DNA of 64,000 nucleotides from Hyphomicrobiales bacterium (GTDB lineage Bacteria; Pseudomonadota; Alphaproteobacteria; Rhizobiales; JACESI01), in NCBI GenBank assembly GCA_039989895.1, contig JBDXGY010000003.1, positions 21,141 to 85,140 on the forward strand, written 5' to 3'. Position 1 is the first letter of the stretch. Each line of letters opens with the position of its first letter. The notes beneath the pieces were generated by a model. The model was given only the letters and a program-made list of their open reading frames with translations. It was not told the origin of the DNA and made no database searches. Below, piece after piece: positions 43,555 to 63,003 of the stretch. Both the position numbers and the translations under genes were made by a program.

Positions 43555-44192
43555 TTATGTTCCTTTACAGCTATGGAACTGTTTTAATTATGTTATTCAT
43601 GATCAAGCTATCTTATTGCCAGATAGTCTCAATTGCATTCTCACTAATATGGCATAGATATTTTGTCCTGTGGTGGTATGCCCTGTGAATTATGTGAAAA
43701 TTAAGGCATGAAGGTACTATTGATTTGGTATTGGAGCAAACCGATATAGCTAAGGCGTTTATGGTGCCTCTCACAGATGGACGATAAGCGTTAATCTTGC
43801 ATAGCATCAACACTAATACAGGGCGCGCGGGCTACGCAGATTAACGAGGCTGCCTCAATGGCAGGATAGTTATTATGGTTATTTAATCAGTGCCCTCAAA
43901 GTTGATCCGCCCCGTAACATCTCAATCTTAAAGTCAAGAAAACCATAAACCATTGTTATAATTTTATCTGCACGTAACGGCGCGTAATAGACGTTAGTTA
44001 TCAAAACATCAACAAAAGCAATTTTACTTGAACGTCTATCAGGCATGGCATAACATACTCAGGTGTATCTATATGATGCACATGATTGGAATGGAATTCG
44101 AAGGGTAAAGATCTATTTTTTATTTTAAAATCAATAATTTAACTTTTTGAATTAGCATTTTAAATTTTGCAATCTAGGGAGGAGAAAGCATA

Positions 44193-45296
44193 ATGAATAA
44201 GAAACTAAGAGCTTTATCGGCAGCCGTATTCATGGCTGGCACGATGCTAGGAGCCGCCACAACAAGTCAGGCATTGGACTTTGGCAAAGATGGCGAAGCT
44301 GTTAATCTAGTGATCGGTTATCAGCCTTATTACACTGAATCTTGGTCTGGTGTTGTGAACAATGGCAAGGCGTTTTGGAAGAACCACCTGCCAGAAGGAT
44401 CAACAGCTGAGTTTCAAGTAGGTCTTCAAGGATCCGTTATTGTGAACGCAATGACCGGTGAAAAACAGCATATCGGCTATATGGGTGATATGCCTGCAAT
44501 CGCTTCTACATTCCGTAATCTTAAGGATCGTGGCGGCACTGACATGCGTATTGTTGCGACACTTGGAACGTCAAAACAGCAATGCAACATCTTTTTGGTG
44601 CGCAATGACGCTCCAAAATTCGCAAATGGTGTCGACGCCGTTAAGTGGATGGATGGCAAAGTAACATCAGCTCCACATGGTGCTTGTACAGACCGTTTTG
44701 CTCAACTGGCTTTTAATAAGGCTGGCATTAAGCCAAAGCGTTACCTGAACCAAAACATTGAGGTTATCACAACTAACTTCCGTGCCGGCAAACTTGACGC
44801 TGCTGCGATTTGGGAGCCAACAGCGACCAAAATGGTAAAAGCTGGCTTGGCGAGACGCGTTGCGACTGGTGAAGACTTTAATGCATTGGATGGCGCCTTT
44901 ATGGTGATGTTGAATGATCTTATTCAACAGCGTCCTGATGTTGTTAAAGGTTGGCTCAATGCTGAGCTTGATGCACAGCTTTACATTGCTGATCCTGCCA
45001 ATGCCGATTCTGTCGCGACCATGGCAGAAGCTCAAACAGAGCAAATTGATAAATCAGTTTTATCAGCCGCTCTTTTTGAAGGCCCGTCAGGTACAACAAA
45101 ATTGAGTCTTGATTTTGAGATCAATGACCGTGCACAAAGCCTGTTGAAAGATGCAACTGCATTCCTTTACAGCCTTCCTAAAAAGCCTGCTGCGGCCGCT
45201 ACTATTCGCCCAGATGGCGTAATGCCTAATTTTGCGGCAGAAGTGCTTGCAGAACGTGGTCTTACATCACCAGTAGGTGTCATTTCATCAAAATAG
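44193..45296 (+). CDS. msmE: Periplasmic substrate-binding protein, NitT/TauT (SsuA/TauA/NMT1-like) family; candidate methanesulfonate-binding protein
   Basis: Signal peptide MNKKLRALSAAVFMAGTMLGAATTSQA, with a strong SD (GGGAGGAG) 8 nt upstream. It is the first gene of a five-gene ABC operon. The msmE name rests on context with msmABCD, not on a measured alignment. Confidence 0.6.
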   Translation: MNKKLRALSAAVFMAGTMLGAATTSQALDFGKDGEAVNLVIGYQPYYTESWSGVVNNGKAFWKNHLPEGSTAEFQVGLQGSVIVNAMTGEKQHIGYMGDMPAIASTFRNLKDRGGTDMRIVATLGTSKQQCNIFLVRNDAPKFANGVDAVKWMDGKVTSAPHGACTDRFAQLAFNKAGIKPKRYLNQNIEVITTNFRAGKLDAAAIWEPTATKMVKAGLARRVATGEDFNALDGAFMVMLNDLIQQRPDVVKGWLNAELDAQLYIADPANADSVATMAEAQTEQIDKSVLSAALFEGPSGTTKLSLDFEINDRAQSLLKDATAFLYSLPKKPAAAATIRPDGVMPNFAAEVLAERGLTSPVGVISSK

Positions 45297-45314
45297 CTCC
45301 ATAAGTCGGAGAAA

Positions 45315-45350
45315 ATGGTGGCGATTTTACTTCAGTAAAATCGCCACCAT
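45315..45350 (+). other. Perfect 15-bp stem-loop in the SBP-permease spacer (intra-operon attenuator/mRNA stabiliser candidate)
   Basis: ATGGTGGCGATTTTA-CTTCAG-TAAAATCGCCACCAT, 19 nt after the SBP gene stop. No U-tract follows. Confidence 0.5.
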
Positions 45351-45553
45351 ATAAAAATTAGCTTGGCAAATTTGATGTAGTTTTCTGAAATTTTAAATTT
45401 TGAGAACCATCCGCAAGATCAATCGATGGATGCTCCTTGATAGCAACTGCGCTCAAAAGATGTGAACTAAACTAGGGTCTTGGCAAAGTTAATTTTAGTC
45501 CAATACTGAGCACTCTAGTCACGAGGCGAATAACAAAAGACAACAGGATTGTA

Positions 45554-46441
45554 ATGACTGATATATCTGTGAAAACGACACCTAAAACGATGACTACGGC
45601 GCCTACCGGTTTTGCGATGTACATTTATCGTTTGAAGCAATCATTCAAAACGCCAAAGCCATACCTCACTGTCTTTGGTATATTTTTATGGATTTTCACC
45701 TACTGGTTGCTTTGTGAAGCACTGGGTATTTGGCGATTTGATAAAATCCCTGGACCGGTTGTGATTGCCAAAGAGTGGTTTTCAACAACACCTTTCCAAG
45801 GCATTTCTGTTTTCACCTCAGAATATTATGAGCACATTCTTGTCAGCTGCCGGCGCATAGCCATTGCATTTGCCATTGCAACAGGCGTTGGTGTGCCAAT
45901 TGGATTATTCATGGGGTGGTCCCGCAAAATTCGCGATTTCCTCTTTCCAATTCTAGAAATTCTTCGCCCAATCCCAATCTTAGCATGGGTACCTTTGGCC
46001 ATTTTGATGTTTGCAGGCTTCGAAGGTCCGGTCATTTTTCTTGCAACACTAGCATCCTTATTCGTCACAGTTTTGAATACAATGCTCGGTGTTGATTCAA
46101 TCGACGAAGAATATTTCCGCGCCGCAGGGTGTTTAGGCTCTAGCAAATGGCAAATTTTCACAAACATCGTCGTGCCTGGCGCTCTGCCGTATATCTTTAC
46201 CGGCCTTCAAATTTCAATTGGCGTTGCATGGTTCTCTCTTGTTGCCGCCGAGATGGTGTCTGGTGACTATGGACTAGGCTATCTAATCATCGACTCCTTC
46301 ATGAACAATGTAACTGTCCCGATGGTTATTGGCATGCTTACGCTGGGCTTTATCGGATGGTTTACAGCTATCATTGTTCGGATGGTCGGCAATAAATTGA
46401 TGGACTGGCATGTTCGCGAATTAGCTCAGCAGGGTCGCTAG
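45554..46441 (+). CDS. msmF: ABC transporter permease (NitT/TauT family), first of two
   Basis: 295 aa with about 6 TM helices. EAA-loop region in a BPD_transp_1-like pattern (DEEYFRAAGCLGSSKWQIFTNIVVPGALP). Confidence 0.6.
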   Translation: MTDISVKTTPKTMTTAPTGFAMYIYRLKQSFKTPKPYLTVFGIFLWIFTYWLLCEALGIWRFDKIPGPVVIAKEWFSTTPFQGISVFTSEYYEHILVSCRRIAIAFAIATGVGVPIGLFMGWSRKIRDFLFPILEILRPIPILAWVPLAILMFAGFEGPVIFLATLASLFVTVLNTMLGVDSIDEEYFRAAGCLGSSKWQIFTNIVVPGALPYIFTGLQISIGVAWFSLVAAEMVSGDYGLGYLIIDSFMNNVTVPMVIGMLTLGFIGWFTAIIVRMVGNKLMDWHVRELAQQGR

Positions 46442-46518
46442 TATTAAAGCGTGAATACAAAGGTTTTTATTTCTTATGAATTTTACCAACACAAATAAAT
46501 CAGGAAGGCCGTTCACCA

Positions 46519-47355
46519 ATGGATAAGCCTAGATCACGGGGTGCCTTGAGCATTCAAAATGTGACTAAAATTTATGACCCTGAAGGGGTCAATGTAATGG
46601 CGGTTGATGACTGTTCAATGGAAATCGCCGCAGGTGAAGTCTGCATGATCGTCGGACCTTCAGGCTGTGGCAAAACCACATTACTTAACGCCATTGCTGG
46701 CTTTCACTCTGTCACCCATGGCCAAATCCTTATGGACGGAGAATTGCTGTGTGGTGGTGTAAAGCCAAAGGCCGATCAAGGGGCTGATCGTATGGTGGTG
46801 TTTCAACATGGGGCTTTGTTCCCTTGGAAAACGCTTACTGAAAATGTCGCTTATGGCCCTATGGTCCAAGGCATTTTAAATAAATCACAAGCAATGGAAA
46901 AAGCGCGCGATATGCTATCGGAAGCAGGCCTTGGGAACGTTACGGAAAAATACCCTGGTGAAGTTTCTTCGGGCATGGCACGTCGGGCCGAGATTGTCCG
47001 CGCCTTGATCAATGATCCAAAAGTCTTGTTGCTGGACGAACCTTACCGGGCAATGGATGCTCTCACTAAGTCAATCATGCATGAGGCGCTTCTTGAGACC
47101 TATGACCGCACGAAAGTGACCATATTTTTCATCACGCATGATCTAGAAGAGGCAATTTTCCTCGGTGACAAAGTGCATGTGGTTACGACCCGTCCATGTC
47201 AGTTAAAGAAGACTGTTGAAGTTAATATTCCACGACCTCGGTCATTCGAGACTCAATCCTCTGAAGAATTCCGTCTGCTGATGGAAGAGGTTAATGAAGC
47301 TGTGCATGAAGAGGCCATTAAAGCCTTTCAGGCTGGCGAACGTGAGATGGCTTAG
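46519..47355 (+). CDS. msmG: ABC transporter ATP-binding protein (NitT/TauT family), first of two
   Basis: Walker A GPSGCGKTT, signature-like VSSGMARR, and Walker B LLLDEP. Confidence 0.6.
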   Translation: MDKPRSRGALSIQNVTKIYDPEGVNVMAVDDCSMEIAAGEVCMIVGPSGCGKTTLLNAIAGFHSVTHGQILMDGELLCGGVKPKADQGADRMVVFQHGALFPWKTLTENVAYGPMVQGILNKSQAMEKARDMLSEAGLGNVTEKYPGEVSSGMARRAEIVRALINDPKVLLLDEPYRAMDALTKSIMHEALLETYDRTKVTIFFITHDLEEAIFLGDKVHVVTTRPCQLKKTVEVNIPRPRSFETQSSEEFRLLMEEVNEAVHEEAIKAFQAGEREMA

Positions 47356-47372
47356 GGGCGAAAGTAAAAATA

Positions 47373-48239
47373 ATGACCGATGCAACAGTAGAAAACAAAC
47401 CAGTGAGAGCAGAACCGGTACGCCGTTCAAAGCTCCAAAAACTAATCCAAAGCACAACATTTTGGCGTGGTGTTATATCAATTGTGACGTTTTTGATCCT
47501 ATGGGAAATAGGATCTCGGTTTGGTGAATTAACCGGTACAGGATGGGAATTACCATTTGTTGGAAAGATTCCACCTCCCTCCGCTGTTTTTGTCAGCTTC
47601 CTCGAAGTAATCCCTAACATTGGATATTGGAACAGCTGGCTCCAAAGCACCAAGCGGGTTATGTCAGGGTTTATTGCTGCCATGGTCCTTGGAATACCTT
47701 TTGGCCTCGCGCTTGCAGTTAATAAGTATTTTCGAGATATCTTTTTTCCACCCTTTGAGGTGCTGCGCCCTATCCCGCCTTTGGCTTGGGTTCCTGCGTC
47801 GCTTATCTTTTGGCCAACCAATGAAATGTCGATTGCATTTGTGACCTTCTTGGGTGCCTTCTTCACGATTGTGATTAATGTGATCGGTGGAGCACGTTCA
47901 ATTGATGTTCGCTATTTGCGAGCGGCCCAATCAATGGGTGCCTCACAATGGGATCTATTCAGTAAGATTATACTACCTGGAACATTGCCTTCCATCTTTA
48001 TTGGTGCCGCAGTTGGCATGGGTATTACTTGGGAAGTGGTTCTTGCCGCTGAAATGATTTCCGGCGGTGGCACACAGGGCGGTGGTGGCCTTGGGTTCTT
48101 TATCTGGAATTCTTACATCGGGGGCTCTTTGGAGCAGGTCGTTGTTGGCATGATTTCAATTGGTATAGCTGGTTACTTATGTTCTAGCGCCATCCGCGTA
48201 CTGGGTACTTTATGCATGCCTTGGCGCCGGCTATTTTAA
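47373..48239 (+). CDS. msmH: ABC transporter permease (NitT/TauT family), second of two
   Basis: 288 aa and paralogous to 45554-46441 (DVRYLRAAQSMGASQWDLFSKIILPGTLP). A glycine-rich loop GGGTQGGGGLG is unique to this copy. Confidence 0.6.
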   Translation: MTDATVENKPVRAEPVRRSKLQKLIQSTTFWRGVISIVTFLILWEIGSRFGELTGTGWELPFVGKIPPPSAVFVSFLEVIPNIGYWNSWLQSTKRVMSGFIAAMVLGIPFGLALAVNKYFRDIFFPPFEVLRPIPPLAWVPASLIFWPTNEMSIAFVTFLGAFFTIVINVIGGARSIDVRYLRAAQSMGASQWDLFSKIILPGTLPSIFIGAAVGMGITWEVVLAAEMISGGGTQGGGGLGFFIWNSYIGGSLEQVVVGMISIGIAGYLCSSAIRVLGTLCMPWRRLF

Positions 48240-48266
48240 GTTTAGATTTTTGGAGATAACGAAATT

Positions 48267-49139
48267 ATGCACGATCTATATGGAAAAATCTGCCGCGAAC
48301 CTGCCGAACGCAGGAACAGTGGTGACATAGAAAAGCAAAGTAAGATCGAAATTAAAAATCTCTCAAAATCCTATGGTGATGAATGGGAGTCAGAGCAGGT
48401 TTTAGAAAATCTGGACCTCATGGTGAACCCGGGTGAGATGACAGTTATTGTCGGCCCTTCAGGGTGCGGCAAATCTACTCTCGTCAATCTTATCGCGGGT
48501 TTTGAAAGCCCAGACGAAGGTAGCATCCTGCTGGATGAAAAGCAGATAACAGGTCCAGCGAAAGATCGGATGGTCGTGTTTCAAGAAACAGCACTCATAC
48601 CTTGGCAGACCACCTATCAAAACATCGTCTTTGGTCCAAAACTACGTGGCGATATCAAAGGGGCAGAACTTAAGAAGAGAACTGAAGACCTTTTAATCAA
48701 AGTTGGACTTGGTGAGTTTATGCATAAATACCCGTTGCAACTTTCAGGCGGGATGCAACGGCGGGCTGAGTTGGCGCGTGCTCTTATCAATGAGCCACGC
48801 GTGATGATTATGGATGAGCCGTTTCGTGGCCTTGATGCTATGTCACGCTCACTCATGCAGGAATTCTTCTTGCAACTGTTTGATGAAAACAAAAGAACCA
48901 ACTTGTTTGTTACCTCTGAAATTGATGAGGCAATTTTCCTAGCTGATAATTTGATTATACTTTCAAATAAACCCACGACGGTACGTAAAATTATTCGGGT
49001 TAATCTACCCCGTCCGCGTAACTATAAAATGCTTAGCTCACCTGAAGCTTACGAAATCAAACGTGAAGCAATGGAAATTCTCCATGAAGAAGCAATGAAG
49101 AACTTCAAGGGTACGGGCTCTGATGAGGCCGCTGGATAA
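48267..49139 (+). CDS. ABC transporter ATP-binding protein (NitT/TauT family), second of two
   Basis: Walker A GPSGCGKST, signature LSGGMQRR, and Walker B MIMDEP. Confidence 0.7.
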   Translation: MHDLYGKICREPAERRNSGDIEKQSKIEIKNLSKSYGDEWESEQVLENLDLMVNPGEMTVIVGPSGCGKSTLVNLIAGFESPDEGSILLDEKQITGPAKDRMVVFQETALIPWQTTYQNIVFGPKLRGDIKGAELKKRTEDLLIKVGLGEFMHKYPLQLSGGMQRRAELARALINEPRVMIMDEPFRGLDAMSRSLMQEFFLQLFDENKRTNLFVTSEIDEAIFLADNLIILSNKPTTVRKIIRVNLPRPRNYKMLSSPEAYEIKREAMEILHEEAMKNFKGTGSDEAAG

Positions 49140-49208
49140 TTAAGAGCCTAGATTATTCAAAAGATGCAATGTTTAACAATGCTATGACCTTTGGGAAGGA
49201 TAGTGTGA

Positions 49209-49460: not shown

Positions 49461-49554
49461 TAAGACAAATAATATTAAGTGTTATTTGATCACACTGTTT
49501 GCTATTATTGAGTTTACTAGGTTCGAGAGTTTAAGTGTAACTGATGGCAAAAAA

Positions 49555-50277
49555 ATGCTGATTGAGGTAAGCGGACTGCATAAATCCTTTAAAGGACAAA
49601 TGGCGGTCAACAACGCAAATTTCTCCATTGAAAACCCTACTATTGTTGGCTTGCTTGGCTCTAATGGTGCTGGGAAATCCACCACCATGCGAATGATGGC
49701 TGGCATACTAAAACCTGACAGCGGTGTGGTGCGTATTGTCGGTCATGACATCATCAACGATCGCCTATCCGCACAAAGTAATCTTGGCTATCTTCCCGAA
49801 GCCGCTAGCGGGTTTTCAAATGTCACCGCGCTTGAATTTCTCAAGTTTGCAGCGAGTGCCCAAGCATTAGAAAGACAAGACCGCAAACACGCCGTAGAAG
49901 CTGTCATTGATCGTCTTGATTTGTCATCGATCACAGGAACGACACTTGGCACACTCTCTAAAGGCTGGCGGCAACGTGTCTGGTTGGCGCAGGCGCTCAT
50001 CCATGATCCCAGCGTCTTGATACTTGATGAGCCAACCGATGGCCTTGATCCCAATCAAAAACTCGTGCTGCGAAAATTGCTACAGGAAGTCGCAAAGACA
50101 ACCGCCATTATCATGTCCACCCATATTCTTGAGGAAGCGGAAAACCTTTGCGAGCAAGTGATTGTGATGAATGAAGGAAGCATAGTTGCTAACCTGCCCA
50201 CACAAGATTTGCTGGACAGCGAAGGGCGTTTAGCAACAGCTGTTCTAGATTTAACAACCTCACAAGTGGGGCACTGA
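49555..50277 (+). CDS. ABC-2-type transporter ATP-binding protein (GldA/CcmA-like)
   Basis: MLIEVSGLHKSF start, Walker A GSNGAGKST, signature LSKGWRQR, and Walker B LILDEPTDGLD. The start is taken at ATG 49555; the track's TTG start is at 49486. Confidence 0.75.
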   Translation: MLIEVSGLHKSFKGQMAVNNANFSIENPTIVGLLGSNGAGKSTTMRMMAGILKPDSGVVRIVGHDIINDRLSAQSNLGYLPEAASGFSNVTALEFLKFAASAQALERQDRKHAVEAVIDRLDLSSITGTTLGTLSKGWRQRVWLAQALIHDPSVLILDEPTDGLDPNQKLVLRKLLQEVAKTTAIIMSTHILEEAENLCEQVIVMNEGSIVANLPTQDLLDSEGRLATAVLDLTTSQVGH

Positions 50278-50284
50278 TATTTCC

Positions 50285-52897
50285 ATGGAGGATAAAAAGA
50301 CCAACACACCAATGATGCGCGGCCCACTTGTTTCAAACTGGTTTGAGCAAGTTTTTGCAATGACCAAGCAGGAATTGCAGCAACTTGTCTACACACCCAT
50401 TACATTGATTTTTCAATCCTGGTTTTTACTAGCTTTGAGTATATTGATATTCGCTGTTGCCGATTTCTTATCGACCGATCTCGCCACCTTTGATCTGTTA
50501 TGGACATTCTTACCTTGGGTTTCGATTGTCTTAGTTCCAGTGCTTGCCATGCGCGCTTTTGCGCAAAATATTGGTGACCGAGGATTTGAATTGCTTATGT
50601 CATTTCCAGTTTCAGATTCGGCGATTGTTGTCGGCAAATGGCTTGGCGGAGCTATTGTCTTAATTATAACGCTGGCGATGACTGCGCCCTTTATTGCGAC
50701 TGTTGCCTATCTTGGGTCTCCTGATTGGGGCATAGCTCTTTCTGGATACATCGGCGCAGCTCTTCTCTTAATCAGCTTTTATGCGCTCGCTCTTTTTGCA
50801 GCCTCTCTCACCCGTGATCAGGTGGTCGCTTATATATTATCCCTTAGTGGTTTAACGGTGCTGCTGATCTTGGGTTGGGACGTGGCCGCACGTACACTCG
50901 GCGGAACATTGCCAGATTGGGTAATAACAGCGCTCGTTCAGGCAAGCCCGAAGTTCTGGCTTGGTGAGATGTCGCAAGGCCAAATTCATTTGGCGGCCAT
51001 CATTTATTTTATCGGGCTAATTAGCTTGTGCCTTGTATTGACGATTAAGGTTCTCAAAGGACGCCGCATTGACAGCCCTGGGGCGCTCCATCCAGCATTC
51101 GGTATCTTAGGACATACTGGTTTATGCTTTTGTGTAATCGTTTTGCTGGGTGCGTCTGTGTCACATGTACCCTATGCGCTTGATATGACGAAGGACAAGA
51201 TATTCACTTTGCATCCTGAAACTATTCAAATAGCAAAGCAAACTCCAGATAATACAAAGATCGACTTTTATTATAGCAGCGATGAAAGCGCTATTCCGGC
51301 CAGCATCCGGCACCATGCCAAGAAGGTGAAAAATCTACTTGATGAGGTTGCGGGCCGTTCTAACGGTAAGATTACCATCGTTGAAAATTATATCGCACCG
51401 GATTCCTCTTCTGAAGAGCAGGCGCTTATATCTGGTGTGCGATCCATTCCCATGACTTCTGGCGATCAGTTCATGCTTGGTGCGGTTTTTCGGCAAGGAG
51501 ATCGTGAAAGCGCTATTTCATATTTTGACCAGCAGCGCGCTCAACTTTTAGAATATGATCTTGCTTTGATGATGAATTCGCTCAATCGTAAAAAGACGCC
51601 CCGCATCGGCATTCTTACCCCTTTATTAGCATCTAGCAACATAGACAAACCACGCGAAGGCTTTGCTATTTTTGAAGAAATTAAACGGCAATATGATGTG
51701 ACAATAATCCCGCATTTTCATGATCAACTACCAGAAAACTTAGATGTATTGCTTGTCGTTGATGCGCCAATTTTGAAAAAAAGTATGCTCTTATCGATTG
51801 ACCAGCACGTCATGAATAACCGTGGGTTGATCGCAATTCTTGACCCTTACCCTCGCTTCAACAGTGCGAATGCCCAGACCTCACCGCAGCCCTCTGAAGA
51901 AATAAACGATATATCAGATATTCTCGCAGCCTACGGAATAATCTATCAAGGGCCAATTGTAATTGGCGACAGCGAGCTAGGCGCACCCGTTGCTGGGGCA
52001 GATGGCAGACAATTAATCTATCCTTATTGGTTGCGCCCAAATCGACCCTCTATGTCAACGGCACACGGGACGACAGCGAGTTTGAATGAACTTTTATTCG
52101 CTGAAGCAGGATCTTTCAAAATTTCTAAAACCAGAGCTGAATTTGATCGATTGATTGTAACCGGCGAAAGCTCTGGCACCTTGCCAAGAGATAATTTCAA
52201 GCAAAAAGCACCGGGTTTTCTTGCAGCCCAATTCACGCAAGATAAAAGTATGAGTCATACAATTGCAGTGGCGATGCGTGGAGAAGCAACCAGTGCTTAT
52301 GGCGCTGATAATAAAGTCTCAGGTGAAGTTTCCTTCAAGAAGAAAACACAATCCGCAAATGTGTTTGCGATCGCCGATGCCGACTGGTTATTCGATCCAA
52401 TGGCTTTTCAAACTGTAAATAACGGCGGTCAAGAAGTGCGGCGACCGTTAAATGATAATGTTGCCTTTATACTGAATATGATCGAGTTTTCTTCAGGCGA
52501 CCCGAGATTGGTAGGCATTCGCTCACGTGGTGGGGCTCGGCACTCCTTCACCACAGTAGCCGACATTCTACAGGCGGGGCGAGATCGTTATGTAGCTCAA
52601 GAAGCTGATTACGCCAACCGGATCGCTAAATTGGAAGCAAGCATTTCAGAAGTTATGAGCCTGACAGGAGCAACCGACATCAGGCAATTACCAGATAATC
52701 TGCAATCTCAGATCAAGGAATTGAGAAAGAATATCCTGCCGTTTCGTCAAAACCTCAGAGAGATTAGAGAAAGAATGCGCGAAGATGTTGAGAAGTTAGA
52801 GTTTAAACTTAACTTCTTAAACTTCATTGCTGGACCGGTTTTAGCCGTCCTATTTGCAGCATTGGTGTGGGCGCGGCGGCGTAAAAAAACCCTCTAG
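50285..52897 (+). CDS. Fused ABC-2 permease (GldF-like, ~260 aa) + GldG-like auxiliary domain (~600 aa)
   Basis: The N-terminal six-TM region is ABC-2-like. Then come a TM segment, a [14 protein letters not shown]...IDFYYS...IAPD region typical of GldG N-domains, and a C-terminal coiled coil plus TM anchor ([22 protein letters not shown]). The start lies 8 nt after the ATPase gene. Confidence 0.65.
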
Positions 52898-54674: not shown

Positions 54675-54732
54675 CAATAATTGTAGTGTTAAGAAAATTT
54701 ACTTCGAATTATGGAAACAAACTGGACTAAGA

Positions 54733-55632
54733 TTATCCTTTAGCTTTTCCAATCTCTTCGAGTTTTTTCTCCCATTTCATAGCTTTTGCGAAGGTTTCAA
54801 GTTCTTCATCAGGCATATGAATTGTGTTTTCAGGACCAGGGTAATTCCGATTAACCACATCATCCATGTAACGAGTAATCACGTCTTCCATAATAGGAAT
54901 AAGGTCGGTGTATATGCGTGAATGTTTTGGAACATGCTCTTCCCAAAGATGGAAGAGATCTGATGAAATAATATGTACACCATCTGCGCAGTTACCTGCA
55001 CCAAGGCTGATAACGGGCACTGGCAAAATCTCTGCCAAATATTCAGCAACTTCAGATGTTGTCACTTCGCAAAGAATAGAGAAACAACCAGCATCATAAA
55101 ACGCTTTTGCATCATCTACCATTGCCTGTGCACTTTGGGCTGTTTTACCCTGAGCAACAAAACCACCAAGCTGAGGCATACGCATTGGTGTAATACCAAC
55201 GTGGCCTTGTACCGGAATACCCGCATTGACGATTGCTTCAATGTTTGGCGCATGATGGCGATTGCCTTCACACTTCATCACTTCAGCATTTGCTTGGTGT
55301 ACGAATTTACCAGCATTGTCGATTGCTTGCTCTTTAGAAACATGGAAGCTCCAGTAAGGCATATCAACCATACGCATACCGTATTGAGAACCACGATCAA
55401 TGGCTTGGGCCATCATCATGACTTCTTCAAAACTAACTGACACCGTGCTTTGGTGTCCAAACAAAATCATGCCGCCTGTATCTGACACACATAATATGTC
55501 CATGCCTAAACGATCCGATACAACCGCTGTTCTATAATCATATGCAGCAAGCTGCGTGATAGGCTCACCTTTTTTCATTTTCGCTTGTAGCGTCTTATAA
55601 GTAACTTTTTTTCTCTTAGCAGCCTGTGCCAT
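54733..55632 (-). CDS. 3-methyl-2-oxobutanoate hydroxymethyltransferase (PanB) family protein with a C-terminal extension
   Basis: AYDY ... VSDTGGM ... VDMPY ... MKCEGN ... GHVGITPM ... ILCEV align with the PanB Mg/catalytic motifs (VGDSLGM, ADLPF, VKIEGG, GHIGLTPQ, LVLECV). Strong SD GAGGGGAGG before ATG 55632. No panC is adjacent. Confidence 0.75.
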   Translation of the reverse strand: MAQAAKRKKVTYKTLQAKMKKGEPITQLAAYDYRTAVVSDRLGMDILCVSDTGGMILFGHQSTVSVSFEEVMMMAQAIDRGSQYGMRMVDMPYWSFHVSKEQAIDNAGKFVHQANAEVMKCEGNRHHAPNIEAIVNAGIPVQGHVGITPMRMPQLGGFVAQGKTAQSAQAMVDDAKAFYDAGCFSILCEVTTSEVAEYLAEILPVPVISLGAGNCADGVHIISSDLFHLWEEHVPKHSRIYTDLIPIMEDVITRYMDDVVNRNYPGPENTIHMPDEELETFAKAMKWEKKLEEIGKAKG

Positions 55633-55684
55633 ATTGGGCCTCCCCTCATAATAAATTATTGACTTTAGCCTCACCGAGACTATT

Positions 55685-55705
55685 TGCTATTTTGCATAAA
55701 TAGCA
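55685..55705. promoter_or_regulatory. 21-bp perfect palindrome upstream of the panB-like gene (operator or 5'-UTR hairpin candidate)
   Basis: TGCTATTT-TGCAT-AAATAGCA, 53-73 nt upstream of the start at 55632. Confidence 0.4.
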
Positions 55706-55969
55706 CACCAATTAAATTTGTTAGACATCATTCGTGATGTTTCAAAACATAGTAAAATGTATGCCCTCTATTAGAATTTTGGTAACGGCTATTAGTATAG
55801 CAATCTCATAATTGAAGAGCAAAAAACGGGGCAATATGTAGCATCGCTCTGTAATCTCGAAAATCTAGTAATTACTCAGTATATAGCTCGATATAGCTGG
55901 CCTGTTTCCATTGTGTGACAGCTCTGCGCCTATAATCACGATATCTATTGGGTCATTTGCCATTTCTAA

Positions 55970-56008
55970 TTGATGCTATCTAATATATAGTGCCTATATT
56001 GTAGATAG
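55970..56008 (+). promoter_or_regulatory. Candidate lysR promoter overlapping LysR-type dyads
   Basis: TTGATG-N18-CTATAT (55970-55999) approximates the alphaproteobacterial sigma-70 consensus CTTGAC-N17-CTATAT. ATATAG-TGC-CTATAT (55985-55999) and CTAT-N7-ATAG (55994-56008) are T-N11-A-style dyads, 70-90 nt upstream of the LysR gene. Confidence 0.35.
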
Positions 56009-56075
56009 AAACTGTTTTCAAATGCCTATGTTTTTATTTTCTTACATAGCTTTTTCACATGGGGAGGTGTGAAAT

Positions 56076-57011
56076 ATGTTTTTGAGGCAATTCAAATATT
56101 TAATTGCAGTCGATAAGGAGGGGCACTTTGGCCGTGCTGCTGCGCATTGCAATGTGACGCAGCCAAGTTTGTCGAGCGGCATAAAACAATTAGAACTAGA
56201 ACTCGGTGTAACGCTCTTTAAAAGAGGGCGTGGACAAAGATTATATGGCACGACCCCAGAGGGCGAAGTTGTTGCTAAATGGGGCCGTCAAATTATCGCA
56301 CATTGCGATGCTATGTATGATGAAATTGCATCCATGCAAAATAACTTGAATGGCACGCTAAGAATTGGCGCTATGCCATCCATGTCACCCATCTTGCCGG
56401 TGATTTTACAAAGAATTAGAAATCTTCATCCAGACATCAAAATTGATGTAGAATTTATTGGTAATGACGCGATGAAAGTCGGCCTCGGTAATTTCACGCT
56501 CGACAGTGCAATTACCTATGTCGATAATGCTGATCTGGGTCGATGTGACGTATTGCCAATCTATACAGAGACCTTCAGTCTGCTTGTTCCGGATTCTTTC
56601 AAGTTTGAAAACCGCGAGGAAATCACCTGGAAAGAAGCCTCGGAACTGCCTTTAGCCATGTTGAGTCCCAATATGCACGAACGCCGATTTGTGGAAGAGG
56701 CATTTGCTAAATCTGGTTGTGATGTTGTGCCAAAAATTGAATCGCCTTCAATTTTGCATCTTATGTTTCAGGTGCAATTTACCGAACTTTGCACCGTTAT
56801 TCCTTCGCACTTTATCCGCATGCCGGGGCTACATGAAGGTACGAAGGCTTTACGCTTGATAGAACCTGAAGTTACTCAAGAAGTCGGCTTATTCTGGATT
56901 GAAGGTAAAACGGCTATGCCTATGACAAATATCATGGTTGATATTGCAACTAACCTCAACCAGTCAGGCGATCTGCGTAGTCTTCTCAGTGGCCCCAAAC
57001 AACGATCATAA
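56076..57011 (+). CDS. LysR-family transcriptional regulator
   Basis: N-terminal wHTH domain LRQFKYLIAVDKEGHFGRAAAHCNVTQPSLSSGIKQLELELGVTLFKR followed by a LysR substrate-binding domain. SD GGGGAGG. Confidence 0.85.
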   Translation: MFLRQFKYLIAVDKEGHFGRAAAHCNVTQPSLSSGIKQLELELGVTLFKRGRGQRLYGTTPEGEVVAKWGRQIIAHCDAMYDEIASMQNNLNGTLRIGAMPSMSPILPVILQRIRNLHPDIKIDVEFIGNDAMKVGLGNFTLDSAITYVDNADLGRCDVLPIYTETFSLLVPDSFKFENREEITWKEASELPLAMLSPNMHERRFVEEAFAKSGCDVVPKIESPSILHLMFQVQFTELCTVIPSHFIRMPGLHEGTKALRLIEPEVTQEVGLFWIEGKTAMPMTNIMVDIATNLNQSGDLRSLLSGPKQRS

Positions 57012-57016
57012 AGCCG

Positions 57017-57844
57017 CTAATTAGCCAAGCGCTTGCGACAGTTAAGAATGCTTTTGCTCAAAAATAAAACCACATCATCATCACTCATATTGTCTGACGC
57101 AATGCGCTCAACAGGCAAAAGACTTGAAGCTTCAAAATCACCTGCCTCAGCCTCATCCTTCGTTGCTGTAAAAAAGAAGGGGGATGGGCGCAGTCCATCG
57201 CCAGCTGACAAGCCCATACGAATGGCTGGTGAGCCAAATCCTGGCTGTAAGTCGAGCTCTATGCCCAGATGGAATAGCTGCGGCCAGCAAATAACCGGTA
57301 TATCTGTTGAGGCAAGGAACCCATCTTCATTATTTTTGAGACTATCCGCAACAGCTGCGCATACTTCGGCTGAGTCACAAAAACAATCGTTCAATGCCGT
57401 GAGCTCATTAGAATATTGCTCGACTTCGTGTTCCTCACTATCACCCATCATCAGTTCTGTGCCGACATAAGGAAGAGTTTTTGAAAATTTCTCACGATCC
57501 ACACCACGATGCAGCAACTCTATCAAAAACCATGCCTCAACATGAGCCGGTGTTCGCTCTTGAAACGACAGTGTGTGGGGAACCGGAATATCATTTTCAC
57601 AAAACTGCAGCTCAAGTGTCTCAAGCCGCAGCTCGAGGGAATATTTAGACAAAAATTGTTTTGTTCTGATTGAACGCGCATTTGAATTCCACAGCAGTTC
57701 AATGTGACTATTTTTATCATCCGCCTCTATGTAGCTGTTGGCTATTCGCGCCATCCAATGCAAAGCATTTTGAGCTTGCCTGCGAGACGCTTTCATTTCA
57801 GTTGACTTAACCGTTAAAATTGATTGCCACTGCTGATTTTTCAT
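57017..57844 (-). CDS. Hypothetical acidic protein (275 aa), co-oriented downstream of msmD
   Basis: Longest ORF in this stretch, with GAGGA 9 nt upstream of the ATG and 71 nt after the msmD stop. No signal peptide or TM segment, and no family recognised. Confidence 0.5.
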   Translation of the reverse strand: MKNQQWQSILTVKSTEMKASRRQAQNALHWMARIANSYIEADDKNSHIELLWNSNARSIRTKQFLSKYSLELRLETLELQFCENDIPVPHTLSFQERTPAHVEAWFLIELLHRGVDREKFSKTLPYVGTELMMGDSEEHEVEQYSNELTALNDCFCDSAEVCAAVADSLKNNEDGFLASTDIPVICWPQLFHLGIELDLQPGFGSPAIRMGLSAGDGLRPSPFFFTATKDEAEAGDFEASSLLPVERIASDNMSDDDVVLFLSKSILNCRKRLAN

Positions 57845-57915
57845 CTTCTCACATCCTCAAGCAAAATCTGGATGTCATGAACATCCGATTTATTATTCAA
57901 TTGTTGAGCTATTGC

Positions 57916-58959
57916 TTAGCTAAATTTATCATAACGAATTTGCTGTGCTGAAAGACCCGCATTCACAATTAAAACACGGGTTGCCGCATCAACCATCGGG
58001 GCTGGGCCTGCAAGATAGCCGATCACATTGCTATTATCACCATCAACGCAACCTGCAGCAACGTCAGTGACAAACCCGCCCGCCAGCGTAATATCCGGAA
58101 AATCTGGATGAACTGACGCACTCGGCGCTTCATCAGATAGAACAAGGGTAACTTCAAGATTACCCTTTGCTTCTTTCATCATCGATGAAAGCTCGCTCAT
58201 ATAAAATGCATCTATTAAGGTTCTAACACCAAAAAACAGCTTTGCTTTTCGCTTTAAAAGATGCCCCGATCGCGTTGCATGATCTAAAATAGACATAATA
58301 CCTGCAATGCCAGAACCGCCGACGATGCATATAAGGTCTTTATCTTCCTCAGGATGGAATGTTGCCCTCCCCAGAGGACCAAAGAGTTTTAACTGGCTGC
58401 CTTTAATGTCATTTTCAAAAATCCAATCGGAAAATCCACCATTTGGATTGCGCTTAACAACAAAACTTATGCGATCTGTTGAAGAATCATAATTCACCAT
58501 AGAGTAAGCACGGCCACCAGTCAGATTTGGCGCTTCCACAACCATAAATTGGCCGGCTTGAAACGACAGATTCTCGCGCATAGCTATCTCATAATGGATA
58601 ACATCTGACGTCAGTTTTTTGACTACGTCCACTGTTCCGTGGTGCAATTTAGGTAATGTGTTTTTGTTTTGGTCATCTGGAGTATCGGAAGGCACGCGCA
58701 GCACGCAATCGCCATTTGCGCGCGTCTGACACATAAGTATATCGCCTTTATCAGCTTTGTAACGCGCCATGCCTGGTGCGTCAGTCCATGCCATATCGAT
58801 ATTTCCATCCATAACGCGGGCCCTACAAGAACCACAGGTGCCTGTCGCGCAATCATAGGGAAGTTTAAGCCCCGCCTTTAACCCAGCGAATAAAATAGGC
58901 TCATCTTCAGCCGTCTCAAATTTATACTCACCTGATTTGGATTGTAGCGTGATGGTCAT
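57916..58959 (-). CDS. msmD: Oxygenase reductase: N-terminal plant-type [2Fe-2S] ferredoxin + FNR-like FAD/NAD(P) module; candidate MSA monooxygenase reductase
   Basis: CATGTCGSC (C-X4-C-X2-C) with a later Cys, RAYS-type flavin motif (GRAYSMVN), and GGSGIAG NAD-binding loop. It is the last gene of the Rieske oxygenase operon. Confidence 0.72.
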   Translation of the reverse strand: MTITLQSKSGEYKFETAEDEPILFAGLKAGLKLPYDCATGTCGSCRARVMDGNIDMAWTDAPGMARYKADKGDILMCQTRANGDCVLRVPSDTPDDQNKNTLPKLHHGTVDVVKKLTSDVIHYEIAMRENLSFQAGQFMVVEAPNLTGGRAYSMVNYDSSTDRISFVVKRNPNGGFSDWIFENDIKGSQLKLFGPLGRATFHPEEDKDLICIVGGSGIAGIMSILDHATRSGHLLKRKAKLFFGVRTLIDAFYMSELSSMMKEAKGNLEVTLVLSDEAPSASVHPDFPDITLAGGFVTDVAAGCVDGDNSNVIGYLAGPAPMVDAATRVLIVNAGLSAQQIRYDKFS

Positions 58960-59000
58960 TTTATTGCAGCCTTTGAAGCTTGGTTTACATAGGCTGAGTA

Positions 59001-59378
59001 TCAGGAGAAAAAGTCATCGTCGCCTAGCTCATCTTCTTCTTCGAAGTCATAGAGCAATTGTTCCGTGACAAATGCCATAACATGACCATCTTCCACCTTA
59101 GCATCATAGGTTTTGAGAGGCTTTTCTGCTTCGCCCTTTAATTCCAAGGTTTCCAGATCCCACGCCCAAAGGTGCTTTGTGCACGTCAAAACGCAACCAG
59201 CGATGACGCCAGATTCTTCCAAAGGTTCTTCCATATGAGGACACACAGGCGGTAAAACGGTGTAACCATTCTTGTGGCGAGCCACAAGAACAGGAATTCC
59301 TCCCGCAGCGCCTGCCCAAAACTTTTTGACGCCGCCTTCAGTAACTTCGTCTGTGGTGCAAATCTTTGTCCAGCTCAT
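59001..59378 (-). CDS. msmC: Rieske-type [2Fe-2S] ferredoxin; candidate MSA monooxygenase ferredoxin
   Basis: 125 aa with CPH-X17-CTKH Rieske ligands and a very acidic C-terminus (DFEEEDELGDDDFFS). Confidence 0.72.
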   Translation of the reverse strand: MSWTKICTTDEVTEGGVKKFWAGAAGGIPVLVARHKNGYTVLPPVCPHMEEPLEESGVIAGCVLTCTKHLWAWDLETLELKGEAEKPLKTYDAKVEDGHVMAFVTEQLLYDFEEEDELGDDDFFS

Positions 59379-59501
59379 TGGTTTAATCCAATCCTTATAC
59401 TCATTGCCTTATCACTCGAGGCCTTATTATTCAGGGCATATTACTTAGAAGTTCGAGCTAATTTGGCATCATCTATCAAAATTAAATACAATCGATGTTG
59501 G

Positions 59502-59999
59502 TTAAATAGGCCAATGAGACCCTTTGTCCAAGCGACGGTTATCTAATTTAACTTCACGCTTGAGAAACTTCACTTGGTCATTTTCAATGACAAAATCATC
59601 AATATATTTGCCAACCAAAAACAGGCGGCTTTCACCTGAATCAATATGAGAATTATTACCATCAAGCATGTTTTGATAAACAACAAACGAACTCACTGCA
59701 CTGGCAGATTTACCATCCTCAGCCACATCAACTGTGTAAACGGATGTATGACGGCGCAAGGGAGAATGATCTGTATTGTGCTTAGGGAGCAGATCAATGA
59801 TGGATGTCATTTCCTTCAAGTCGCCCTCCATATAGATCATGTCTTTATTAATCTCTGGGCTGAAAGAGGTTATTATATAGTAGTAATCTTCACTACATAA
59901 TGCGAGCCAGTCGTGCCATTCCTGACCATCCAGTGCAATGGTTGCTCGATAAATCGTATCCCGAACTGAGTTAGAAATATCATAATTATTGTTTGGCAT
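59502..59999 (-). CDS. msmB: Ring-hydroxylating-oxygenase small (beta) subunit, SnoaL/NTF2-like; candidate MsmB
   Basis: 165 aa. The size, position and pattern (IYRATIALDGQEWHDWLALCSEDYYY ... RHTSVYTV ... GKYIDDFV) are typical of RHO beta subunits. Confidence 0.7.
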   Translation of the reverse strand: MPNNNYDISNSVRDTIYRATIALDGQEWHDWLALCSEDYYYIITSFSPEINKDMIYMEGDLKEMTSIIDLLPKHNTDHSPLRRHTSVYTVDVAEDGKSASAVSSFVVYQNMLDGNNSHIDSGESRLFLVGKYIDDFVIENDQVKFLKREVKLDNRRLDKGSHWPI

Positions 60000-60183
60000 T
60001 TATTATCATTCCCTGAGTGATGGCGAGGTCTTTTTGTCCGCCCGCCTTAACATGTTTGCTATCCGCTATATTTTTCATTTCTCATGCAATTGATAAGATA
60101 ATTGATCAATTTCTCATCAGCCAATGACTGCATTTTAAAGAAAAATGGTCACGTCGCAAAACTTGCTTTAATGACAGATGGTC

Positions 60184-60219
60184 GCAAGACCAGAAACCTA
60201 TTTTGGTTACAGGTCTTGC
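60184..60219 (-). other. Extended hairpin immediately after the msmA stop
   Basis: Outer stem GCAAGACC/GGTCTTGC and inner stem AACC/GGTT, 17 nt after the msmA stop. No U-tract follows. Confidence 0.4.
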
Positions 60220-60235
60220 ATCATTGTTGATTAAA

Positions 60236-61498
60236 TTATTCTGCTGCTTCCGCTTCGGCTGCGGCCGCTGGTGGAGAATATGGTTGATCCGGCGCACTTG
60301 GCAGACGGTCCATCCAACGACCCCATTCATCATAATAATGGCGCATACCATTTTCATCATGGATGGTTTGATTTTCCTGACGACCATGGAGAATACGGCG
60401 ATTATCCGTCTTCTCGCGCATTGTTGTCCCTTGACCGGTAACACCAATCAGGTCTTCATGCAGATTGCGACCGAATGGGCCCCAAATCGAGTTGTGGTGC
60501 TTAATTCTGGTAGCACGGTCCTCTGCGGAATCACTTTTTAAACCAAGCCCACGGAATTCAATCATCACTTTATTTGGACCTAATGGCGTAACCACATCGG
60601 TACGCAAGGCTGATCCGCGCAAGTTGAAGTTGAAGCCAGGGAACAGATCAATCATATACCACTGGTTCGGTGGCAAATGCGGGAATGACAATTCTGCGCG
60701 ACTTTCGAAGCCTTCGTAATTCTCGTAATTAACTTCAAATGAGCCGACAACGACATGGCCGTGGTCAAAGGCTTCATTTTTACGAGCAAAATAGGAATCA
60801 TTAAAACCGGTTACCCTATTATGGTAGTGCATGAAGTCGTGATAAAACTCACTGTTAGTATCATGCCATAACTTATAGTTCGTATCGATTATCGCTTTAT
60901 GATAATGGAAAACCTCAAGAGGCTCTTCATCAAGAGACTTTTGCAAGCACTCAAAAGGTTTGCCTGCCCAGTCTTCAAGAGAAACTGATGGATTATCGCT
61001 GAGGTTAACCCAGACAAAACCACCGTATTTTACTTCACAGCGAAGTCTGCGCAGCCCTACATCGGCTTTACACAAACGATCCTGATAGCCTTCTTCTTCT
61101 CTGGAGACATAGACACAATTGCCCTTCATGTCGAACTGCCAAGCATGGAACATACAAGTCATACGCTTAGGGTTGCCTGATGGCTGACCTTCCATAAAAC
61201 TTCCAGATGGACGCCGCTCAATAAGCATACCACGGTGAGGGCAAACATTGAGGAATGCTCGCACTACCTTGTCGGGACCACGTGTTATTATGATGGGCTC
61301 ATTAGCAATACTTGTGGTGCGGAAGTCATAAGGCTCAGGAAGCTCAGATTCATGGCAGACCGGCACCCATACCTGTTTGAAAATTTTCGAATTTTCTTCT
61401 TCAGCAATAGTCTCATCAGAATAAACGCGACTATCGATCCACTCGCCTTTTTCAAGCTTTGGGTCCGCTGTCCATTGTTTGTTATTGCGTGCGGGCAT
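60236..61498 (-). CDS. msmA: Rieske oxygenase large (alpha) subunit with CXH-X26-CXXH centre; candidate methanesulfonate monooxygenase hydroxylase MsmA
   Basis: 420 aa. CPH-RGMLIERRPSGSFMEGQPSGNPKRMT-CMFH gives a 26-residue spacer by my count. Catalytic-domain His cluster NSEFYHDFMHYH. SD GGAGA 6 nt upstream. Followed by beta-subunit, Rieske ferredoxin and reductase genes. Confidence 0.78.
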   Translation of the reverse strand: MPARNNKQWTADPKLEKGEWIDSRVYSDETIAEEENSKIFKQVWVPVCHESELPEPYDFRTTSIANEPIIITRGPDKVVRAFLNVCPHRGMLIERRPSGSFMEGQPSGNPKRMTCMFHAWQFDMKGNCVYVSREEEGYQDRLCKADVGLRRLRCEVKYGGFVWVNLSDNPSVSLEDWAGKPFECLQKSLDEEPLEVFHYHKAIIDTNYKLWHDTNSEFYHDFMHYHNRVTGFNDSYFARKNEAFDHGHVVVGSFEVNYENYEGFESRAELSFPHLPPNQWYMIDLFPGFNFNLRGSALRTDVVTPLGPNKVMIEFRGLGLKSDSAEDRATRIKHHNSIWGPFGRNLHEDLIGVTGQGTTMREKTDNRRILHGRQENQTIHDENGMRHYYDEWGRWMDRLPSAPDQPYSPPAAAAEAEAAE

Positions 61499-61826
61499 AA
61501 GTCATCTCCTAAATGTTTCAGCTATCCATCTATTTAAACTGCAAGATCGCTCCTGAACTCACAGACACCAATAGACAGCTGCCTCCAAATGGTAACCTAA
61601 GATACCAAGATCATAATATATCTCTGCACCTAAAGATTTTCATAGTATCTAACTTTAACATAGGTAAGTCTTCTACTGCTACAGATTATACAATCAAAAC
61701 CATCTATTAGATTATCGAAGCTATAAATCATTATTATATGAGAATATCTGCAAAAAATATCTACTTAAAACAATAGCTTAAAAAACAACCTCAAAATAGC
61801 TTTGCGGCAAAAAGAACATGCAACCT

Positions 61827-62912
61827 CTACTTAACGTTCACTTCAACGCGCGCAACTCCATTATTACCCACGCCGTAAAAAGTAACGACTTGCTCAAGTG
61901 GTTGTATATTACCTTTTGAATCCGTTGCTCGAGAAACCAGCGTATGTTTTCCAGGGGTGGCCTGCCATTCATAATTCCAGCCGCGCCATGCAAATTCACC
62001 AATGGGTTCTTCCAGCGATGCGTCATTCCAAGTTTTACCATCATCTGCACTTACTTCGACGCGCGATATCTGATTTTTCCCAGCCCATGCACGGCCCGTT
62101 AAGGTGACAGGGCCAGGCTCTAAACGACGCTCAAGTGATGGAAATGTAGAAACACCTGGAGGCGCCATCAATGCGCGCACTTTAATCGTCTCAATCGCAG
62201 TTCCCGCATCTCCTGCACCACTGGTTTCGCGATAAAATATCATCTGCATGCCATTGAAGGCCTCAGTGACAACTTCTATTTGATTAAGCCATTTTACGCT
62301 TGTCATTCCATACCAACCTGGAACAAGGAGGCGAAGCGGATAGCCATGTTGCGGCTCAAGGGGGGCGCCATTCATTTCATAAGCCAGAATTACTTCATCG
62401 TTCATCGCATCAGCAATGGTAAGAGAGCGTTGATAATATTGGTCTTCTCCTGATTGTATTCCTCTATCTGCACCCGTAAACAGCACCTCTAAAGCGCCAT
62501 CAGCAAGACTAGCTTCTTCCAAAATACCTTTAAGAGGCGTGCCAGTCCATAAAGCTGTACTCACAGCGTCATGCGTCCAAGGCTGGTTTACAGGGCGCGG
62601 TTTCATGAAAGCGCGGCCATTTCCGGCGCATTCCAAAGTCACTGGCATTTTGACGGCTGGTCGTTTCTTGATGTCATCAAGGTCCAGTTTAATCGACTTA
62701 TTAACATGCCCACCAATGTCCAATTGCCATGTGCTGGAGTCTACAACAGGAATATCCCAGTGATTAAGGAGATAGTGCATGCCTGTAGGTGTAATCGGCA
62801 TACGAAGTCCCTCTGCCGGTATTCCGCGATTTCTGAACGCAAGCTGAACTTCTTGAAACTCAAATGTGTTCTCACTTGTATGGCCGCCCTCACTTACAAG
62901 AACATCAGACAT
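61827..62912 (-). CDS. Sulfite-oxidase-family (SUOX-fold) molybdopterin oxidoreductase, no signal peptide
   Basis: TLECAGNGR contains the Mo-ligand Cys (compare CAGNRR in sulfite oxidases). GYPLRLLVPGWYGMTSVKW lies in the Oxidored_molyb core, followed by a C-terminal Ig-like dimerisation domain. The ATG at 62912 is preferred (AAGGGGA 5 nt upstream) over the one at 62927. No RR/Tat motif and no hydrophobic leader. Confidence 0.78.
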   Translation of the reverse strand: MSDVLVSEGGHTSENTFEFQEVQLAFRNRGIPAEGLRMPITPTGMHYLLNHWDIPVVDSSTWQLDIGGHVNKSIKLDLDDIKKRPAVKMPVTLECAGNGRAFMKPRPVNQPWTHDAVSTALWTGTPLKGILEEASLADGALEVLFTGADRGIQSGEDQYYQRSLTIADAMNDEVILAYEMNGAPLEPQHGYPLRLLVPGWYGMTSVKWLNQIEVVTEAFNGMQMIFYRETSGAGDAGTAIETIKVRALMAPPGVSTFPSLERRLEPGPVTLTGRAWAGKNQISRVEVSADDGKTWNDASLEEPIGEFAWRGWNYEWQATPGKHTLVSRATDSKGNIQPLEQVVTFYGVGNNGVARVEVNVK

Positions 62913-62973
62913 TTTCTTCCCCTTCATGATTTTACTGGATTGTTTTTAACTTTGGTTTGGAGCAAAGACCCGA

Positions 62974-63003
62974 TAATAGCTGGTTTATATATTTATTTCC
63001 AAG
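62974..63003 (-). promoter_or_regulatory. Candidate sigma-70 promoter of the SUOX-family gene
   Basis: The minus strand reads CTTGGA-N18-CTATTA (consensus CTTGAC-N17-CTATAT), about 60 nt upstream of the start. Confidence 0.3.

Follow-up and report, generated by a model that had tools for sequence, protein, structure and literature searches.

Across the 64,000-nt stretch of Hyphomicrobiales bacterium DNA analysed here (the window), the hexamer ATAGCT (AGCTAT on the opposite strand) is concentrated in the intergenic spacers of a gene cluster for methanesulfonate (msm), a compound that arises in the atmosphere as a major product of dimethylsulfide oxidation. We conclude that this excess is probably a by-product of ATAG-rich, fast-turning-over regulatory DNA, together with duplication and some post hoc selection, and that ATAGCT is not a dedicated motif. 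On the evidence of conservation, position, and synteny, the conserved functional unit of these spacers is a predicted ATAG-cored operator-promoter module of the LysR type, at which the cluster-linked LysR regulator would bind and activate transcription in response to an inducer. The extra ATAGCT copies are distinct from the conserved operators and mostly strain-specific.

The hexamer was counted in four spacers, upstream of msmE (43555-44192), between the panB-like gene and lysR (55633-56075), between msmA and sorA (61499-61826), and upstream of sorA (62913-63169), which comprise 1666 nt in total and have a G+C content of 33-36%, compared with 46.8% for the whole window. An earlier, sequence-only reading of the window had listed 11 starts in these spacers, and all of them proved exact (43569 and 43606 on the - strand; 43746, 55883, 55893, and 56046 on the + strand; 61520 and 61719 on the - strand; 61773, 61796, and 62976 on the + strand). 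Its expectation of approximately 0.8 copies was too low, since dinucleotide-preserving shuffles of the spacers yielded 2.1-2.2; against this composition-matched background the ATAGCT excess persisted at 5-fold, and none of 2000 shuffles reached 11 copies. AGCTAT was the top-ranked hexamer in the spacers, with a Poisson p of 1.3-1.7e-5 and a family-wise p of 0.007-0.017 (minimum-p over all hexamers). The remaining intergenic DNA of the window contained two copies in 4633 nt (Fisher 2e-5), and the whole-window count was unremarkable (33 vs. 25.9 expected). As a count, the ATAGCT excess in the msm spacers is real and local.

The hexamer, the word length, and the spacer subset were all picked post hoc, after inspection of the sequence, and two pairs of copies are non-independent: those at 55883 and 55893 form a 10-nt tandem duplication, and those at 43746 and 62976 lie within a repeat of 27/32 identity (43724-43751 vs. 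62951-62981). Because both pairs are local duplications, leaving eight or nine independent events, family-wise significance was lost when duplicates were collapsed (p of 0.19 with nine events and 0.64 with eight). Among the nested words, ATAG itself was enriched in the spacers with a family-wise p of 0.0013 (40 vs. 21.8 expected), followed by ATAGC with a family-wise p of 0.042 (17 vs. 6.1) and by ATAGCT (11 vs. 2.16). The collapsed p values would fit an origin by chance and duplication alone, in which a word and region chosen post hoc, the 10-nt tandem duplication, and the 30-nt repeat produced the excess without any link to a regulator; the lack of enrichment in the sister lineage and the neutral evolution of the copies point the same way. 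We consider this possible but unlikely, given the robust enrichment of ATAG, the near absence of copies from other intergenic DNA, and the presence of ATAG as the invariant core of the operators described below, by which the background for ATAG-containing words is truly raised.

The spacers were compared with those of sister contigs sharing the gene order of the window, which were obtained by three protein searches: L094-L097 (MsmE 98% identical), L081 and L082 (LysR 97% identical), and L088 and L089 (SorA 92% identical). Aligned spacer divergence from the sisters was 12.9% upstream of msmE and 14.1% between sorA and msmA, and the panB-lysR spacer was more diverged. Conservation of ATAGCT in related msm loci, which the earlier reading had named as a test of its motif, was not borne out: two of the 11 copies were kept in the closest relatives, six were substituted, and three were located in indels or window-specific segments. 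The eight alignable copies had acquired 8 substitutions in 48 nt (16.7%), a rate no lower than that of the spacers (13-14%). The four equivalent spacers of the sister lineage contained 3+0+1+0 copies (four in 1789 nt, not significant), and two of the three in its msmE spacer were at new positions, which read ATAGTT and GTCTAT in the window. In distant relatives, ATAGCT was enriched neither in the msmE-msmA spacers (16 copies vs. 11.8 expected) nor in the DNA upstream of lysR (4 vs. 3.6); other ATAG-containing words, such as CTATCA, AATAGA, and ATAGCC, were strongly enriched.

The conserved element emerged from the arrangement of the cluster in relatives. In 80 loci fetched with MsmA, for which the best match in species-representative genomes was 88%, msmE was usually divergent from and adjacent to msmA (approximately 60 relatives were so arranged), and the recurrent gene order was msmABCD, orf275, lysR, and panB. 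In the window and its sister contigs, msmEFGH and msmABCD are approximately 12 kb apart, and the ancestral divergent msmE/msmA spacer has been split in two. Alignment of the msmE-msmA spacers of relatives showed two boxes, of which the msmE-proximal Box 1 (core AAAATYGTTC) stayed with msmE after the split and the msmA-proximal Box 2 stayed with msmA; this natural operon split allowed each box to be assigned to one promoter. Read towards msmE, Box 1 has the form ATAG-N7-CTAT-N6-ATTA-N7-CGAT-TTTACA-N17-GTGCCAT, in the same register as a box upstream of panB, whose consensus among 31 distinct relatives is TCATAGCC-N5-GCRAATAT-N3-ATAG-N7-GTATTTGACT-N17-GCGCCCCATG. In 53 distinct msmE boxes, element 1 always reads ATAG, elements 2 and 4 always end in AT, and element 3 always begins with AT, none of these positions having served as an alignment anchor. 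Both ATAGs were invariant in the 31 distinct panB boxes, and the N7 and N6 spacers varied freely among relatives. The operator, ATAG-N7-C.A(A/T)-N6-AT..-N7-..AT, has four short elements paired as two dyads and directly abuts a conserved -35-like TTKACW; a (G)CCAT, also conserved, follows after 17 nt, the two forming a putative promoter.

Both modules are present in the window. The msmE module (43987-44051, + strand) reads ATAG (43987)-N7-TTAT-N6-ATCA-N7-CAAT, followed by the -35-like TTTACT (44023-44028), a 17-nt spacer, and TGGCAT (44046-44051). It is orthologous to Box 1 of the 53 distinct relatives and was the top nhmmer match of the Box 1 profile within the window, and the msmE module region (43951-44032) is 100% identical in the sisters. 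The module of the panB-like gene (55728-55792, - strand) reads ATAG (55792-55789)-N7-CAAA-N6-ATAG (55771-55768)-N7-ACAT, followed by TTTACT (55756-55751) and a candidate -10 located 17-18 nt further on; it is the sole intergenic ATAG-N17-ATAG pair in the window, carries ATAGCC, is in register with the panB box of the 31 distinct relatives, and is kept in L081. This AT-rich window ortholog was missed by an nhmmer search with the profile built from the GC-rich panB box; the module was placed by register, the ATAG-N17-ATAG search, the L081 alignment, and a composite 41-nt pattern, ATAG-N9-AW-N6-AT-N11-ATTTKAC. The pattern had exactly two matches in the window, at 43987-44027 (+ strand, towards msmE) and 55752-55792 (- strand, towards the panB-like gene), compared with 0.01 expected, and recurred at these two positions in 72 of the 112 loci fetched, a count that is descriptive. 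Neither window module contains ATAGCT. An interrupted T-N11-A dyad, repeated approximately two helical turns apart, is found at 43987-44022 and 55792-55757, and the simpler ATAG-N7-CTAT with at most one mismatch was not enriched window-wide (23 vs. 17). The expected -10 position is G+C-rich, with (G)CGCCCCATG at panB (L043-L079, approximately 17 nt downstream of TTGACT) and GTGCCAT or CTGTCATG at msmE (most Box 1 loci); this departure from TATAAT hints at an unusual -10 or at activator dependence.

The candidate binder of the ATAG boxes is the LysR-type regulator encoded at 56076-57011 (+ strand; Pfam HTH_1 and LysR_substrate). Its gene is syntenic with msmABCD: 50 of the 80 loci carry it no more than 10 kb from msmA, at 57-73% identity. 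In the window, as in L013, L051, L080, L081, and L083, lysR and the panB-like gene are divergently oriented. The best match of its DNA-binding domain among solved structures was P. aeruginosa OxyR (4x6g), with a near-identical helix-turn-helix. By the NCBIfam cut-offs the regulator is not OxyR itself (OxyR score of 89 bits vs. a cut-off of 329), and the protein fell below the cut-off of every NCBIfam equivalog.

The OxyR-type site is a special case of the T-N11-A box of LysR-type transcriptional regulators (LTTRs). The modules resemble OxyR operators in having four 4-nt elements in two dyads, ATAG/CTAT cores, N7 within each dyad, and a site that abuts the -35 region, which in the modules is putative. 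They differ in that elements 2-4 are degenerate (C.AW, AT.., and ..AT) and in that the central spacer is N6, not the N7 of the OxyR site, which, with a regulator other than OxyR, sets them outside the definition of an OxyR regulon site; moreover, OxyR targets serve peroxide defence, whereas the predicted targets of the modules are methanesulfonate transport and C1-transfer genes. The resemblance to the canonical OxyR site, ATAG-N7-CTAT-N7-ATAG-N7-CTAT (PMC5720770), is one of mechanism only. Classical LTTR promoters (CbbR, BenM/CatM, and CysB/Cbl at sulfonate genes) share with the modules a strong upstream dyad (here ATAG-N7-CTAT-like) and a weaker dyad overlapping the -35 (here putative), and they share with the window a regulator gene linked to, and partly divergent from, the regulated catabolic or sulfonate genes, as seen for lysR and the panB-like gene; the half-sites of BenM and CatM differ (ATAC-N7-GTAT). 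Judged by their sequence, the msm modules would work like OxyR-type and classical LysR-family operators and would be an additional example of that class.

The sequence-only reading had proposed ATAGCT as a half-site for the local LysR regulator. This idea is supported only in a generalised form, with a linked LysR gene and promoter-proximal boxes of ATAG/CTAT dyads both conserved, but the conserved unit is ATAG(C/G) rather than ATAGCT: the modules lack the hexamer, and nine of the 11 copies are lost or mutated. We regard as quite unlikely the stricter proposal that every ATAGCT copy serves the msm LysR as a functional half-site, with the dispersed transcription units coordinated by all 11. It would account for an enrichment specific to four promoter-bearing spacers, for an ATAG core identical to that of the conserved operator, for the ATAGCT found in the panB box of some relatives, and for the three copies kept in the msmE spacer of both lineages. 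However, the nine unconserved copies are missing from relatives whose spacers are 86-87% identical, the two orthologous operator modules contain no copy, and an N7 dyad partner with at least 3/4 bases was found for one of the 11 copies (62976). Several copies are also located 15-25 nt before start codons or just past the sorA stop, which are odd positions for an activator, and the sister lineage shows no enrichment.

The other proposal of that reading was that copies containing AGCTATAT or CTATAT are -10 elements of alphaproteobacterial-type sigma-70 promoters. The spacers do need promoters, and the copy at 62976 overlaps a promoter-like match upstream of sorA (TTGGAA-18-TATTAT, - strand, 63002..62973), the only copy to do so. 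Nevertheless, AGCTATAT in any orientation is present in only three of the 11 copies, the copies occur in both orientations relative to the downstream genes and are unconserved, and the conserved promoters, with a -35 TTKACW and a -10 that conservation suggests to be (G)CCAT-like, lack the hexamer. Promoter-like matches were not clearly above shuffles (1 vs. 2.2, 5 vs. 3.8, and 7 vs. 2.7 ± 1.8), and consensus scans for promoters and terminators were uninformative, at approximately the shuffle level. One promoter cited as an example, at 55970-55999, contains no ATAGCT copy; the other, at 62974-63003, does coincide with the promoter-like match overlapping 62976 but lies in a window-specific segment. 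A role of the copies as -10 elements is therefore extremely improbable. An Rfam scan of 42500-64000 gave no match in the spacers.

The window-specific segment upstream of sorA (62930-63017) is 81 nt long, has a 7-nt direct repeat, TTTTACT, on its two sides (62930-62936 and 63011-63017), carries the 62976 copy, and is absent from L088 and L089. It shares the 27/32 repeat with the msmE spacer, and approximately 96 nt are extra in the panB-lysR spacer; along with a resolvase gene adjoining sorA in a sister contig, these features are what would be expected if the copies belonged to a small dispersed repeat or mobile element inserted in the spacers, such as a miniature inverted-repeat transposable element or a repetitive extragenic palindrome. 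A repeat search and short-query blastn among the spacers, however, recovered one 27/32 pair and local palindromes only, and a degenerate pattern of the 30-nt repeat had 15 unrelated matches over metagenome contigs, about as many as chance would give. The indel would be explained equally well if the sister had lost the segment by deletion between direct repeats, and we consider a mobile origin of the copies very unlikely.

Several points weigh against the interpretation of the excess as a by-product of ATAG-rich regulatory DNA. The bases CT follow ATAG in 11 of 40 spacer cases, compared with 9% expected (p of 6e-4), which this interpretation does not fully explain. Three ATAGCT copies occur in the msmE spacer of both lineages at partly different positions, which could mean selection on number and not on position. 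ATAGCT was also modestly enriched at panB in relatives (12 vs. 2.9), in some cases within the second dyad of the panB box, and a C-T following ATAG may be acceptable to, or favoured by, the regulator. Furthermore, the intergenic background was limited to 64 kb of the genome, and the composite pattern was devised after the sites had been seen. Because of the residual C-T preference after ATAG in this strain, we allow a slim chance that the ATAGCT copies serve the msm LysR, or a second ATAGCT-preferring factor, as labile auxiliary sites, with selection acting on their number per spacer; selection on number is considered because the msmE spacer has three copies in both lineages, one of them shared. 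If this were true, labile ATAGCT sites could tune or buffer regulator occupancy after the msmEFGH/msmABCD split.

Under the favoured by-product explanation, a tetramer of the LysR regulator would bind the four-element ATAG operator and would activate transcription in response to methanesulfonate or a signal derived from it. The conserved box upstream of msmA and the block upstream of lysR also contain ATAG. Such operators would raise the frequency of ATAG-containing words in the spacers, local duplications and indels would supply three to four of the ATAGCT copies, and the post hoc choice of word and regions would add to the apparent excess. This explanation predicts that the promoters of msmE and of the panB-like gene each have an OxyR-like, four-element ATAG operator to which the cluster-linked LysR binds, with a predicted range covering Hyphomicrobiaceae, Xanthobacteraceae, Methylobacterium relatives, and marine lineages. 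On this view ATAGCT is unfit as a motif for regulon searches, and the comparison illustrates how a k-mer enrichment that looks striking in a single strain can collapse once sister strains are aligned.

The gene content of the window is that of the msm clusters of Methylosulfonomonas methylovora, Marinosulfonomonas, and Candidatus Filomicrobium marinum (msmABCD, msmEFGH, LysR, a panB-like hydroxymethyltransferase, and sulfite dehydrogenase); in those known clusters the msmEFGH and msmABCD operons are divergent neighbours, in contrast to the separated arrangement of the window. The Filomicrobium cluster is adjoined by a LysR gene, and the putative regulators orfX and orfY have been cited (PMC4433239). 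Our literature search on msm genes found no described operator, regulator function, or regulator.

Box 2, which has the form TTCGAT-N6-ATAG-N4-TTTTGATTGT in relatives, is conserved upstream of msmA in distant relatives and could not be fitted to the four-element register. In the window, it is located at 61690-61719 (msmA sense, TTCGATAATCTAATAGATGGTTTTGATTGT) within a block (61635-61723, - strand) that is 87/89 identical to L088 and L089, and the sorA-msmA spacer outside this 89-nt block is approximately 18% diverged from them. The block reaches approximately 55 nt downstream of Box 2 and has no Rfam match; it could contain the promoter and leader of msmA, or another element.

The copies in the msmE spacer differ in context. 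The first (43569-43574, - strand) is 15 nt upstream of the start codon of an OmpR-type (ChvI-like) response regulator, in the leader, and is conserved in L094-L097. The second (43606-43611, - strand), which is AACTAT in the sisters, overlaps the left arm of the inverted repeat CTATCTTATTGCCAGATAG, kept in the sisters as CTATCTTATTGCCGGATAG (CTATC-N9-GATAG). This repeat (43608-43626), which has perfect 6-nt arms (CTATCT-N7-AGATAG), lies 55-70 nt upstream of the ChvI-like gene, shows one spacer change in the sisters, and may represent an operator of its own with no relation to msm. The third copy (43746-43751, + strand) forms the end of TTTGGTATTGGAGCAAACCGATATAGCT and corresponds to GCAGCC in the sisters (three changes), where the preceding 22 nt are identical.

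In the panB-lysR spacer, the variable centre (55795-55940) includes approximately 96 nt without counterpart in L081, and with them the + strand copies at 55883 and 55893, which form the tandem ATATAGCT-CG-ATATAGCT noted previously at 55881-55898. Two further features from the earlier reading were likewise recovered: the palindrome TGCTATTTTGCATAAATAGCA (55685-55705), which lies in the leader of the panB-like gene and of which the right arm (AAATAGCACACC) alone is conserved in L081, and a pair of ATAGC in the msmA-msmB spacer (60058-60069), which is not conserved in relatives. A lysR-proximal block (55944-55992, + strand) is conserved with L081 as TCTATTGG.CATTTGC.ATTTCTAATTGATG.TATCTAATATATA, and relatives have (C)GTCTATTT upstream of lysR. 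Also upstream of lysR is a 33-nt imperfect palindrome, CTATCTAATATATAGTGCCTATATTGTAGATAG (55976-56008), the left half of which alone is conserved in L081. The copy at 56046-56051 (+ strand), 24 nt upstream of the lysR start codon, is ATAGGT in L081, with the ATAG core kept and the hexamer lost.

Of the copies between msmA and sorA, that at 61520-61525 (- strand) is 21 nt upstream of the msmA start codon and is conserved in L088 and L089. The copy at the 5' edge of Box 2 (61719-61724, - strand) is GTAGCT in these two contigs and TGCGGC or TGCAGC in distant relatives. The 61773 and 61796 copies (61773-61801, + strand) lie just downstream of the sorA stop codon, and L088 and L089 have AGCTAC and AGCCAT (opposite strand) at the two positions, both copies being lost.

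To the left of the msm block is a ChvG/ChvI-like two-component pair. The block begins with an msmEFGH-type ABC transporter (44193-49139, + strand), followed by a pair of genes (49486-52897, + strand) for an ABC-2 ATPase and a GldG/ABC_transp_aux-like 870-aa protein, which is co-conserved at the same position in most relatives at 37-60% identity. Formate-tetrahydrofolate ligase (52894-54570, - strand) and the panB-like hydroxymethyltransferase (54733-55632, - strand) precede lysR. Beside lysR and downstream of msmD, a 275-aa protein (57017-57844, - strand) with neither a Pfam nor an NCBIfam match is kept in more than 40 loci at 31-51% identity and is an uncharacterised core member of msm clusters. 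The block continues with msmDCBA (57916-61498, - strand) and the sulfite dehydrogenase-like molybdoenzyme gene sorA (61827-62912, - strand). The start of sorA is most likely the ATG at 62912 (giving 361 aa, in agreement with all close homologs) and not the ATG at 62927 of the longest open reading frame, which adjoins the window-specific 81-nt segment. Upstream of sorA, the window has a TadE-like gene where L088 has the resolvase gene (988-1542), and a group II intron reverse transcriptase gene adjoins lysR in L087 (11423-12673); on the basis of these two genes, mobile elements border msm clusters in relatives.

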